Virus record (IMG/VR): IMGVR_UViG_2609459863_000007 | Span: 1-7,247 of that record | Source: a virus | Taxonomy: Duplodnaviria > Heunggongvirae > Uroviricota > Caudoviricetes | Strand: one strand, 5' to 3' | DNA: 7,247 nt | In this document: positions 3,001 to 7,247 of the stretch, piece after piece | Layout of the letters: each line of letters begins with the position of its first letter | Position numbering within the stretch: position 1 is the stretch's first letter | Made by a program: the position numbers

Positions 3001-6000
3001 GGATTCATGACATTTAAACACTATGACGTGGTCAGGGCGGCGTCGCCGTCAGACCTTGCGGAGCGACTGACTCAAAAACTGAAGGAGGGGTGGCAGCCAT
3101 TTGGCAGCCCGGTGGCCATCACGCCTTATACCCTGATGCAGGCCATTGCGGCGGAAGGTGATGTCACCACACCTGTGGTGGTGAAGCCGTCGGATGGAGA
3201 AGGCACAGTTATCAGCACCACCAGCGAACCGGAGTATTACTTTGTTGTTGCCCTGGCCGGGCAGTCAAACGGTATGGCGTATGGTGAAGGGCTTCCGCTG
3301 CCGGAGACATATGACCGTCCGGACCCGCGTATTAAACAGCTGGCGCGTCGCAGCACTGTCACGCCGGGTGGTGCGTCCTGTAACTACAATGACATTATTC
3401 CTGCGGACCACTGCCTGCATGATGTTCAGGATTTGAGTAAGTTTTCACACCCGAAAGCCAGCGCAGCTCAGTATGGATGCGTGGGGCAGGGATTACATAT
3501 CGCGAAGAAATTGTTGCCGTTTATTCCGGCGAATGCCGGTATTCTTCTGGTTCCGTGCTGCCGTGGTGGTTCTGCATTTTTGGCGGGCGATGAAGGTACC
3601 TTCAGCGAATCCACCGGCGCAAGCGAGACCTCGGCACGCTGGGGTGTAGATAAGCCACTGTACAAGGACCTGCTTACCCGTACTCAGGCCGCACTGAAGG
3701 CCAACCCTAAAAATATTCTGCTTGTAGTGGTCTGGATGCAGGGCGAGTTTGATTTGAAACAGGGTGCATACGCCACTCAGCCGGGGCTGTTTGATTCCAT
3801 GGTGGAAAAATATCGTTCTGACCTGTCGGAATTCGGAGGTCAGTGTCTCGGGGGCTCTCCGTCATCGGTTCCCTGGATTTGTGGCGACACGACCTACTAC
3901 TGGAAGCAGACTTATTCTTCGCAATACGATGCGGTGTATGGTGCATACAAGACGAAATCCGCAAAAAAAATCTTCTTTGTGCCGTTTATGACGGATGAAA
4001 ACGGGCGAAATGTGGGTACCAACGAGCCGTCAGAAGATCCGGATGTTGCGGATATTGGGTATTACGGAGCCGGTGGTCGAACGGACGCCAAAACCTGGAC
4101 GACGGCCGACCGTAAAACGCATTTTGGATCATGGGCACGTCGTGGGATTATTTCCGACCGTCTGGCAACGGCGATTCTTGTGCATGCCGGGAGAACCGCT
4201 GAATTCATTACCGGAAAACAGCCTGATACGGTGAAGCCCACCGGACCTTCCGGTGAAGGTACGGAGAGAGAGCCGGAAGCCCCGGTCAGTAACCGAACCC
4301 TGATGAGTCTGCTGGCGTCCGGCGAAGACCTGGCATCACAGGGCTGGCGCTATTATCACAAACCGGCGAGCGGAGACAATGTTAACAAAAACATTGCTGA
4401 AGCGGTGGTCAGTGATGCGGGGGCTACGGGAGGTAAGGCCCTGCAACTGAATAAACCGGAAAACCACATCTGGTTTCTGGAGCATGATGCAGCCGGACAG
4501 GGAGTGGAGTTACTGAAGAAGGGGGGACGTGTGAGCGTACGGTTTAAGTTGCCGGGTTCACTGGTGCCGAATCGGTTTGCCCTGGGCATTTACTGGCAGT
4601 TGTCGTCCCTGCCGGAGGGAGTGACGCTGGCAGAGGAAGGCAACGACATGCTGATGTCCTTCTTCCTGCAGACGGATGCGACGAACCTGAACGCGATGTA
4701 CCACAAGAAGCCGAATGCGAAGCTGGATACGTTCGGGGTCTTTGATAACGGATGGCACACACTGGCTTTTGAGTTTGCCGGAAACAACAGCATTCAGGTG
4801 ACGCCGGTACTGGATGAGAAACGGGGGACGCCGTTCACACTGGTGAAATCTCCGGCATCAGGGGCGGCGGACAAACTGCAACTGACAGGCATATCAAAGG
4901 CGGCGACATATACGCTGCTGATTGACAGTGTGAAGGTGGAAGTGAACAACGCGGATGCCGCGGCATGATAAAAAAAGCCGCCAGCGGCAGGAACGGAAGC
5001 TGGCGGAGGTAATCCCAATGGAGAATCTAACGAAAGGATGCTTTCGACATCAATCATTTCTAAATGAAAACAGTTCTCATTGTCAACCATAACGGTAAGA
5101 AACTATGACATTTATTCATCAGGTGATGCTGTACTTCTGTACGGCGGTCTGTGTGCTGTATCTTCTTTCGGGTGGGTACAGGGCAGTGCGCGATTTCTGG
5201 CGCAGGCAGATTGATAAAAGGGCCGCAGAGAAAATCAGCGCCAGTCAGTCAGCCGGAGCAAAAACAGAAGCCCCACTCATTCCGGAACAACCTTCTTAAT
5301 AACCCCTTTCAACGAGAAAATCCTATGTCAGAAATAAAATCGCTGGTCACTGCTGAGGCAGTGAAGGAAGTCCTGCGCTCTGAAGAAGTCCGGAGCGCAC
5401 TGAAACAGCAACTTCGGCAGAACCTTGAGGCGCGTCTTGATGCAGAAGTGGATTCAATTCTGGATGAATTGCTTGGTGCACAGCCGGAACCATCCCCGGA
5501 ACTGCTTCCGGAACCACAGGCGGAAGATGTCACCACGGAAAATGGTGATATTCAGCCGGAGCCACCGGTGACGGATATGACAGACACACAACCCGAACCG
5601 GGCACAATGCTGTAACGGCGGGGCAGGGCCATCAGTAAAGAGCTGGTGGCCCTTTTGTTGTTGTGAGCTTCCGAGTACGGGAGACGGGGTATGTACCAGA
5701 TGGAAAAAATCACAACAGGTGTGTCATACACCACGTCAGCGGTGGGAACGGGCTACTGGTTCCTGCAGTTGCTGGACAGGGTTTCCCCGTCTCAGTGGGC
5801 GGCAATAGGCGTGCTGGGGAGTCTGTTGTTTGGGCTGCTGACATATCTGACTAACCTGTATTTCAAAATCAGAGAGGACCGTCGTAAGGCGGCGCGGGGA
5901 GAGTAAAGCGATGAAGAAAAAATACGAACTGGTTGTTAAAGGGATAAATAATTACCCGAATAAGATTACTGTTACTGTGGCACTGGAAATTGGTGGGTAT

Positions 6001-7247
6001 CCGTCACTGTTGTTGCCAGATGTGGCGATTAGTCTTGACCGTACTGAAGATGCCACGCTGGAGTTTTACGAAGCTGAGGCGAAAAAGCAGGCGAAGCAGT
6101 TTTTCATGGATGTTGCTGCCGGGTTATGTGAAGGGAACGAACCGTTGCCGGAAAAGCGCCCCGTAATTTTAGAGGCGCAGGATGTGTTGATAACCTACAG
6201 AGGAAAACTACCGGGAATAATTACTGGTTCTCTGAAGACGCCACCGACGGCATTGCGGTCAGAAAACGATGATATTGAATCACGCATTGAAAAACTGGAG
6301 TGCTATATCGCTGAATTGAAAAAAAGCACCCCAACAAAAAATGAGGTGCTTGCAGCAGATGAAATGAAAGAAACTATTCTTGATCGCGCGGCGCATCTAA
6401 GCTGCGCTTCACTGTTGAAAGAGCATCTTCAGCAGCCTTGAGGAATCTTTTATCATCACGAGCAACTGTCTTTGGTATTTCTTTAATTAGATGTTCCATT
6501 TCGGCGATCAGGTAATCTGACACAGCGTTATTTTTACTTAGTGCATCCATTGCTTTGATTATCTTTGCGAGGCAGCCATCTCGCATTGTTGAGTTTACGC
6601 CAGTGCCCACCACTGGCGGGCTGAAGACTTAACATATCCAGGGATTCGGAACCGATAAATCCTGATAAATATCCATGAGCGCAAAAATCAGATACGGCCT
6701 GTCAGCTGCCATTCTGGCGCTGATTGCTGCAGGCGCATCTGCGCCTGACATTCTCGACCAGTTTCTGGATGAAAAAGAAGGTAACCACACCACAGCATAC
6801 CGTGATGGTGCAGGTATCTGGACCATCTGCCGTGGTGCCATCATGGTGGATGGCAAACCTGTCGTTCCGGGCATGAAGTTGTCGAAGGAAAAATGCGACC
6901 AGGTTAACGCCATTGAGCGTGATAAAGCGCTGGCGTGGGTGGAGAAAAACATCAGAGTGCCGCTGACCGAACCCCAGAAAGCGGGGATCGCGTCATTCTG
7001 TCCGTACAACATTGGTCCCGGTAAGTGTTTCCCGTCGACGTTTTATAAACGAATTAATGCAGGCGATCGCAGGGGGGCGTGTGAGGCGATTCGCTGGTGG
7101 ATTAAGGACGGTGGCAGAGACTGCCGTATTCGCTCAAACAACTGTTACGGTCAGGTATCCCGTCGCGACCAGGAGAGTGCGCTGGCGTGCTGGGGAATTG
7201 ACAGATAAGCAGAATATTTTGCTGAAAAATGCGGTTTGCTCACACGG

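Follow-up and report, generated by a model that had tools for sequence, protein, structure and literature searches.

We analysed a stretch of 7,247 nt corresponding to positions 1 to 7,247 of the IMG/VR virus record IMGVR_UViG_2609459863_000007 (hereafter the window), which represents a lambdoid late region of the Shiga toxin (Stx) phage type. Its open reading frames (ORFs) comprise a NinG-like and a Q-like gene, nanS-p (3007-4968), small DUF1378 and DUF826 ORFs, a holin gene, a 176-aa ORF, a minus-strand 79-aa ORF and an endolysin gene. The subject here is the insert of 768 bp that separates the gene for an S21-type pinholin (S) from that for an R21-type signal-anchor-release (SAR) endolysin (R), and that contains the 176-aa ORF, identified below as ydfR, and the convergent 79-aa ORF, referred to as the partner. 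A first-pass annotation had regarded this insert as a module without recognisable function, and its coordinates for the holin stop codon, the insert and the endolysin start codon are all correct.

A YdfR family gene between holin and endolysin

Profile searches assigned the 176-aa protein to a known family, DUF1327, rather than leaving it an orphan. It matches the Pfam family DUF1327 (PF07041) with 152.5 bits (cut-off 25; E=3.8e-45), the match covering aa 1-112 on profile positions 1-92 of 93, as well as phrog_2091 over its full length. Relatives carry the RefSeq name 'YdfR family protein', and ydfR of Escherichia coli K-12 is found at the same position. The view that the gene is unrecognisable and undescribed therefore had to be abandoned: judged by these profile matches, the 176-aa ORF is a member of the known, but poorly understood, YdfR/DUF1327 family at its usual location. 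Pfam returned nothing beyond DUF1327 for this protein, and no match was obtained in PADLOC-DB v2 or NCBIfam.

Several further features that had been read from the sequence proved to be right. Coupling of the 176-aa ORF to the holin gene is borne out by the 4-nt spacing of its ATG and by the Shine-Dalgarno sequence (SD) GGGGAGAG (Table 1). The AT-rich patch at 6441-6560 has a GC content of 35.8% (31.7% and 40.0% in its two 60-nt blocks), and the insert as a whole reaches 44.5% as compared to 55.1% in nanS-p, 53.7% in the holin gene and 54.1% in the endolysin gene. The protein indeed has no transmembrane (TM) segment, the top 19-residue Kyte-Doolittle mean being 1.18, and helices predicted by AlphaFold2 (AF2) at residues 118-137 and 143-163 agree with the proposed C-terminal coiled-coil.

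Alignment of the window with five annotated variants and comparison of the protein length classes, which range from 103 to 305 aa, revealed a conserved core (aa 1 to about 114), followed by a variable cassette that is bracketed by two CTGAAGAC repeats (Table 1). One insert class resembles a clean deletion between these repeats. The N-terminal domain (N-domain) of the core is the conserved DUF1327 unit, which holds the LEFYEAEA motif and comes in two sequence types. It was modelled by AF2 with a predicted local distance difference test score (pLDDT) of about 70-82 and comprises strands at residues 5-14, 18-27 and 38-43 and a helix at residues 50-73. The conserved middle, which is the end of the core common to the minimal 114-aa forms, was modelled with pLDDT <50 despite its sequence conservation.

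The coding region of the variable C-terminal tail includes the minus-strand terminator and extends over 68 nt of the partner ORF. Residues ~122-176 of the window protein have a stand-alone counterpart in Citrobacter, a 57-aa ORF with 57% identity (E=3e-17), which has its own ribosome binding site (RBS) and runs towards the partner gene, sharing 68 nt with it just as the window tail does. In E. coli, tail-only ORFs start directly after the holin gene. According to these alignments the tail is a separable module, which appears fused to the core in the window. The alternative that the tail is an accidental read-through of the partner unit was dropped in view of the stand-alone Citrobacter ORF with its RBS and the E. 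coli tail-only ORFs. The window tail ends exactly where the 211-aa and 305-aa classes go on. In the tail of the 183-aa class, a BRCT domain was considered on the basis of a match to the PARP-1 BRCT profile (E=4e-4 over 70 aa), but was rejected because the AF2 model of this tail is all-helical with pLDDT <50; the window tail has only about the first 25 aligned residues in common with it.

A split YdfR architecture was observed in three E. coli cassettes (L012 1615-2833, L022 2720-3586 and L021 2800-3276), in which a tail-only ORF of 158-213 aa starts at or shortly past the holin stop codon. In L012 this ORF is followed by a separate 75-aa ORF encoding the DUF1327 N-domain only. In L022 a convergent 210-aa ORF overlaps the C-terminal part of the tail-only ORF, a region that in the 305-aa 'YdfR' class makes up the C-terminus.

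Of 5426 complete E. coli genomes, 3027 contain ydfR-related sequence, the median copy number being two, whereas the full-length window variant is carried by only 43 genomes. Searches for the family yielded 282 matches in 5.8 billion clustered proteins and 95 representatives in 1.84 billion, and a scan of one genome per species detected DUF1327 relatives in Escherichia only. Distant stand-alone proteins of 72-76 aa that consist of the N-domain only occur in Serratia, Sodalis, Pantoea, Morganella and Yersinia; IMG/VR and GenBank phages contributed no new loci for them.

The convergent partner is a 5'-deleted remnant of a probably autonomous unit

The convergent antisense ORF, which had been listed as a mere possibility, is present and belongs to a real gene family, but the copy in the window has lost its 5' end. 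Residues 10-79 match positions 18-87 of the phrog_18136 profile, and homology to the intact 91-aa gene is limited to 6374-6558. Intact relatives, found in E. coli G1/2 (NZ_CP060083), which has the 868-bp variant, and several viral contigs, carry a minus-strand 91-aa ORF preceded by the RBS AAGGAA, and two copies of TTATCTTTG, 100 bp apart, lie around this RBS, the ATG and the first 26 codons. In the window, a 100-bp deletion between the 9-bp repeats took the partner RBS, ATG and first 26 codons and left a single repeat copy behind (Table 1). As the start that is left is a GTG without RBS, the 79-aa remnant is very probably not expressed as a protein, that is, the gene would be dead.

In the intact partner, the ratio of nonsynonymous to synonymous polymorphism (pN/pS) is 0.10-0.22 in its own frame as compared to 1 or more in the other frames, and variable sites are distributed 4/1/8 over the three codon positions. 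The gene is followed by an intrinsic terminator (Table 1), whose fold has a free energy of -16.7 kcal/mol and a z-score of -3.4, with none of 200 shuffled sequences performing as well; pairing of its stem is kept through compensatory changes in Citrobacter and in a metagenome copy. At the other end, the partner leader forms a hairpin for which ten distinct variants including Serratia were compared: pairing holds in 96% of cells, with double-sided changes at three pairs, a result that was reached by 0 of 500 shuffles. The leader hairpin has a fold z-score of -3.9 on the plus strand. Homologous leaders are found in Serratia (L096, about 3570-3610) and Citrobacter (L101, about 2925-2965). The element corresponds to no Rfam family and contains no recognisable promoter; indeed, no Rfam family was detected in 5900-6700 at an E-value of 1 or less. 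Read on the cargo-sense strand, the loops of the hairpin are rich in purines and resemble an SD (GUGGG, UAGGAG, UGAGGG), and the hairpin is followed by GGGATGGCTGAT.

The partner unit also exists elsewhere. A Citrobacter copy, which encodes a 70% identical protein and has the same leader layout and a terminator, is situated upstream of a holin gene. Another copy lies near terminase genes in a metagenomic phage contig, and neither is accompanied by a DUF1327 core. Its GC content is 42.4% versus about 54%. Because of its terminator, its leader and its independent occurrence elsewhere, the intact partner is, as far as can be told from the sequence, a real autonomous unit. The partner matches no family in Pfam or NCBIfam, and PADLOC-DB v2 gave only Aga_Nuclease at E=0.014 for the window form and E=0.005 for the intact form, which is not significant.

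Table 1. Features of the S-R junction in the window (aa, amino acids; AF2, AlphaFold2; RBS, ribosome binding site).
Feature	Position	Strand	Details and basis
S21-type class II holin (pinholin), left flank	5691-5906	+	Pfam PF04971 Phage_holin_2_1 E=9e-33; phrog_9876 holin
Shine-Dalgarno GGGGAGAG inside holin 3' end, serves next ORF	5896-5903	+	Sequence
ydfR, 176-aa ORF	5911-6441	+	ATG 4 nt past holin stop
ydfR N-domain, aa 1-73	5911-6129	+	PF07041; three beta-strands and long helix (AF2)
ydfR conserved middle, aa 74-114, PEKRPVILEAQDVLITYRGKLPGIITGSLKTPP	6130-6251	+	Alignments with variants
Left CTGAAGAC repeat copy, inside ydfR middle	6232-6239		
ydfR variable C-terminal tail, aa 115-176, helical, chimeric	6252-6441	+	Divergence points, tail classes
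Intrinsic terminator of partner unit	6324-6351	-	10-bp stem and U7; begins 22 nt past partner stop
Truncated partner ORF, 79 aa	6374-6613	-	GTG start, no RBS; phrog_18136 E=5e-41
Deletion scar, single copy of 9-bp direct repeat TTATCTTTG (+ strand)	6559-6567		Alignment, L003 sequence
Conserved right-edge element, partner leader	6598-6639		8-bp hairpin CGCCAGTG/CACTGGCG at 6598-6618, then GGCTGAAGACTTAACATATCC
Right CTGAAGAC repeat copy, part of GGCTGAAGACTTAACATATCC	6621-6628		
R21-type SAR endolysin, right flank	6675-7208	+	PF00959 Phage_lysozyme E=3e-24

Occupancy of the S-R junction

The best 80 IMG/VR loci anchored on a 97-100% identical holin were surveyed, 71 of which hold both S and R. 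The two genes are adjacent, that is with a gap of 4 nt or less, in 11 of these loci (15%), whereas 48 loci (68%) carry an insert with a DUF1327 core and 12 (17%) an insert with a 'tail-type' ORF only. The survey thus confirmed a real presence/absence insert in these viral loci, but the premise that holin and endolysin genes are normally adjacent does not apply: an occupied junction is the norm in this lineage (85% of 71 loci). Inserts measure 358 to 1316 bp in this sample and up to 1433 bp in other loci fetched. Among GenBank phages, 101 of the 367 records matching the S-R region encode a DUF1327 protein (about 28%). The first-pass annotation had named a conserved orthologue with a known lysis role as the finding that would speak against its proposal; orthologues are indeed common, as these two surveys indicate, but they are not universal and a lysis role is known for none.

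In unoccupied cassettes, exemplified by L054, R starts 4 nt past the holin stop codon and uses the holin-embedded SD GGGGAGAG. When the slot is occupied, ydfR takes this coupled start and R follows a conserved leader without SD. Since ydfR holds the SD that R uses in unoccupied cassettes, slot occupancy may change endolysin dosage. The endolysin leader at 6640-6677, which was compared with L054 2705-2725, reads GATAAATCCTGATAAATATCC-ATG and contains no SD. In a further locus (L029, 3190-3735), a 181-aa hybrid 'endolysin' is encoded, in which a sequence that does not resemble the R21-type lysozyme replaces the C-terminal half, pointing to an internal rearrangement of R.

The moron hallmarks ascribed to the insert, namely lower GC content and insertion into a conserved gene pair, were recovered, and in addition presence/absence polymorphism and a slot resembling a moron hotspot were observed. 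However, ydfR itself is not a strict moron, because it lacks signals of its own, with no promoter-like plus-strand site in 5600-5911 and no plus-strand terminator after the gene, and because it takes the coupled start used by R in unoccupied cassettes.

Cargo exchange in the slot

In E. coli, the right-edge leader precedes at least five unrelated convergent ORFs with strong RBSs, namely the 91-aa type and ORFs of 86, 104, 105 and 210 aa; a sixth cargo ORF of 90 aa occupies the same slot with a different upstream sequence. The cargo ORFs match no Pfam family. Screening of seven cargo and tail proteins from related loci against Pfam and PADLOC returned nothing but one weak PADLOC match, between the 105-aa protein and PDC-S51, a candidate family (E=1.3e-5). 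A 'DUF1823' label in phage PhiR5_1 was discarded as it falls below the Pfam threshold (E=0.023).

Related pairs are found at other late positions. Serratia carries its DUF1327 gene in the interval between the genes for tail chaperone and tape measure, with a convergent 91-aa ORF behind it. The product of this ORF shares 42% identity (E=2e-14) with the 105-aa cargo protein of E. coli, whose gene in turn adjoins a stand-alone 75-aa DUF1327 ORF. Sodalis has its DUF1327 gene next to tail gene L, and in Morganella the gene is flanked by Q and the holin gene. As a homologous partner sits by DUF1327 in the Serratia tail module as well as in E. coli, the DUF1327-plus-partner pair evidently travels as a module among late-operon positions.

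Selection on the YdfR core

Selection was assessed in 29 distinct haplotypes in which all three genes were alignable, the core region being window positions 5911-6246. The YdfR core exhibits a pN/pS of 0.66 as compared to 0.08 for the holin and 0.10 for the endolysin. Variable sites are distributed 7/4/33 over the codon positions in the holin gene and 45/32/137 in the endolysin gene, but 20/20/24 in the YdfR core. Synonymous divergence is 0.069 for ydfR versus 0.124 and 0.228 for holin and endolysin, respectively. Even so, the majority of the 48 loci that carry the core have kept its ORF intact. Among 62 sequences, no variation was seen in the LEFYEAEA motif, which marks the start of the helix, or at about 16 positions, and Y53 and E54 are unchanged as far as the relatives from Serratia, Morganella and Sodalis.

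Neighbouring features of the window

Between nanS-p and the holin gene lie the DUF1378 ORF (5105-5299, plus strand; E=9e-35) and the DUF826 ORF (5325-5615, plus strand; E=2e-28), both small, conserved and of unknown function. A DUF826 homologue is labelled 'head completion protein' in the PhiR5_1 record, which is doubtful given its position. Between the DUF826 ORF and the holin gene, a terminator-like hairpin is present on the plus strand (5625-5653), consisting of a 12-bp stem followed by TTTGTTGTTG; as it is located within the late operon, Q-modified polymerase would have to read through it. Downstream of the Q-like gene, the window contains a match to the STnc100 small RNA family (RF02076; 2578-2783, plus strand), which scores 143 bits in Rfam versus a gathering score of 47 and extends over the full model length. 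Neither stx nor tRNA genes are present between Q and nanS-p in the window.

A possible role of YdfR and its alternatives

Experimental information on the family comes from the K-12 protein. Göpel et al. (RNA Biology 2026; PMC13232886) used RNase G as the bait of a two-hybrid screen that yielded K-12 YdfR, and reported that this protein prefers RNase E as binding partner. In the two-hybrid assay, YdfR residues 1-72 carry the interaction and Rne 1-597 is needed, and Rne 1-598 co-eluted with Strep-tagged YdfR together with DNase-resistant nucleic acid (PMC13232886). Under standard growth conditions K-12 ydfR is silent (PMC13232886). No functional experimental evidence on YdfR was found beyond this work, and a study of Stx-phage lysis cassettes (Pinto et al. 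2021) does not discuss the S-R insert.

On balance, we consider it somewhat probable that the insert is an accessory slot holding a YdfR gene, whose product would be a late modulator linked to RNase E, together with the dead remnant of an autonomous antisense gene. Owing to its position and its coupled start after the pinholin gene, ydfR would be translated only late, from the Q-dependent late transcript, and yield a presumably soluble cytoplasmic protein. By analogy with K-12, the most likely target of its N-domain of ~73 aa is the N-terminal catalytic half of host RNase E, and RNA may be bound as well. YdfR may then modulate RNA decay late in infection rather than lysis; a dedicated lysis role is disfavoured because DUF1327 genes occur in tail modules and because ydfR is absent from 15% of near-identical cassettes. 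The antisense unit, composed of leader hairpin, 91-aa ORF and terminator, belongs to a set of interchangeable cargo genes and was very probably killed here by deletion. A late-expressed modulator of host RNA decay is thus our best guess for YdfR, which we hold weakly.

A number of observations weigh against this interpretation. The one family member for which binding to RNase E has been shown is K-12 YdfR, which is 47% identical to the window protein and has only the N-domain in common with it. Moreover, the full-length K-12 protein gave a signal with only one Rne construct, its overexpression changed few transcripts and caused no toxicity, and the authors themselves caution that a contaminant could explain co-purification of RNA (PMC13232886). 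Confidence in the structure models is only moderate (pLDDT 62 and 51), and no informative match came from fold searches. The pN/pS of 0.66 without third-position excess fits relaxed constraint as well as an arms race. Near-identical copies are treated as pseudogenes by the NCBI Prokaryotic Genome Annotation Pipeline (PGAP), with the label 'missing C-terminus'. Finally, as to the autonomy of the partner, a sigma-70 consensus promoter upstream of it was detected neither in the window nor in L003, Citrobacter or Serratia, where only a TAnnnT-like motif and the leader hairpin are conserved.

The location of ydfR inside the lysis cassette and its translational coupling to S would also be compatible with a factor that controls or times lysis, acting on the cytoplasmic tail of the holin or on the SAR endolysin before export. 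In a variant of this explanation, presence of ydfR lowers endolysin translation by displacing R from the coupled SD, in line with the lack of an SD at R in occupied cassettes and its use of the SD of ydfR in unoccupied ones. A genetic screen cited in PMC13232886 further ties K-12 ydfR to envelope integrity. However, YdfR has neither a TM segment nor a signal peptide, the gene is missing in 15% of the cassettes with a 97-100% identical holin, and in Serratia and Sodalis DUF1327 genes reside in tail modules far from lysis genes. Its core also lacks the low pN/pS of the neighbouring true lysis genes. We regard a role in lysis control as improbable, and the narrower idea of an antiholin or holin-associated regulator was rejected on the grounds of hydropathy (maximum 1.18), absence from 15% of the cassettes and relatives in tail modules. 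The same high pN/pS and the lack of codon-position bias, which extends from the core to the tail, could instead mean that nothing in the insert is functional and that its DNA is decaying while it hitch-hikes in a junction prone to recombination, the 176-aa ORF being an open but unselected chimera. The PGAP pseudogene call, the chimeric tail, the truncated partner, the rarity of the exact variant (43 of 5426 genomes) and the many length classes that arose by rearrangement are in agreement with decay. Yet the core ORF remains intact in most of the 48 loci, the invariant positions described above, including Y53 and E54 across genera, argue for constraint, the domain persists as a stand-alone protein across Enterobacterales, and the K-12 protein can fold and binds a specific partner. 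We therefore regard decay of the entire insert as improbable, too.

The slot may alternatively be a hotspot for conflict genes, with functions in defence, anti-defence or superinfection exclusion, in which the convergent cargo is expressed from the prophage, opposite to the silent late operon, and YdfR with its tail serves as a fast-evolving effector or counter-effector. This would account for a slot that accommodates six or more unrelated cargo ORFs, all convergent and with strong RBSs, for the lower GC content and presence/absence polymorphism, and for a YdfR core that evolves fast while its ORF stays open. Recurrence of a DUF1327-plus-partner pair in another phage module of Serratia and the weak PDC-S51 match of one cargo protein point in the same direction. 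On the other hand, the window proteins have no significant match in PADLOC, Pfam or NCBIfam beyond DUF1327, a cargo promoter was not detected, K-12 ydfR is essentially silent under standard growth, and the truncated cargo gene of the window would not operate here. This explanation is in our view unlikely, although less so than lysis control or decay. The first-pass annotation had proposed the insert as a candidate for an undescribed accessory function; none of the PADLOC defence-system models matches either protein. In a broader proposal, which we rate as similarly doubtful, the DUF1327 gene, its detachable helical tail and the convergent cargo with its covarying hairpin leader would constitute a mobile, recombining conflict module of Enterobacterales prophages, in which YdfR acts as a fast-evolving, late RNase E effector while the interchangeable cargo is expressed in the lysogen. 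Its insertion sites in the late operon would differ among genera, with E. coli using the lysis cassette, Serratia the tail module and Morganella a position downstream of Q. If true, the slot would be a previously unrecognised hotspot of phage-host or phage-phage warfare and the window a half-dead copy of it.

Returning to the accessory slot with a YdfR gene and a dead partner, the finding is mostly corrective: what appeared as a module without known function is a catalogued family at this junction, in a partly decayed copy. Nevertheless, few uncharacterised genes are as common as ydfR in Stx and other lambdoid prophages, and it would be co-expressed with the lysis genes downstream of the stx position. 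If YdfR tunes RNase E late in infection, it could affect the stability of late transcripts and possibly toxin and virion yield. In addition, a slot that swaps unrelated antisense cargo behind one structured leader provides a short and defined list of candidates for functional work.

Comparison with known systems

Should the K-12 result carry over, YdfR would represent a small phage-borne RNase E contact and join the modulators of RNase E and the degradosome, such as T7 gp0.7, T4 Srd and phiKZ Dip or the host proteins RraA, RraB and RapZ. The likeness to RapZ is that K-12 YdfR binds the catalytic N-terminal half of RNase E. There is, however, no sequence or detectable fold similarity to these modulators, and an effect on RNase E activity has been shown for no YdfR.

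The closest parallel in layout is essQ-ydfR-rrrQ of the cryptic K-12 prophage Qin, that is, an S21-type holin gene, ydfR and a lysozyme gene, with the start of ydfR 4 nt past the holin stop codon as in the window. K-12 YdfR (b1555) belongs to the same DUF1327 family, its 47% identity extending over aa 1-74, but it comprises 103 aa with a different short helical C-terminus, its stop codon overlaps the rrrQ start, and there is no convergent partner. In contrast, the window protein carries a 62-aa tail of other origin, and the partner remnant follows. More closely related is ORF47 of the Stx phage BP-4795, a minimal 114-aa YdfR, whose core is 94% identical over aa 1-116; the flanks and the R leader are shared as well. 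The variable cassette is missing altogether from BP-4795, where the two CTGAAGAC copies are only 14 nt apart, whereas a single copy is left in the 379-bp insert class.

Lambdoid morons, for instance lambda bor and lom and the morons of HK97 and HK022, are autonomous accessory units between conserved late genes. The insert resembles them in its presence or absence between conserved genes and its deviant GC content, and the partner unit also in having its own terminator and an orientation independent of the operon. It differs in that a promoter of the partner was not identified and in that ydfR, without signals of its own, is co-translated with the holin gene. Unlike a classical moron, moreover, the slot exchanges its cargo behind a shared structured leader.

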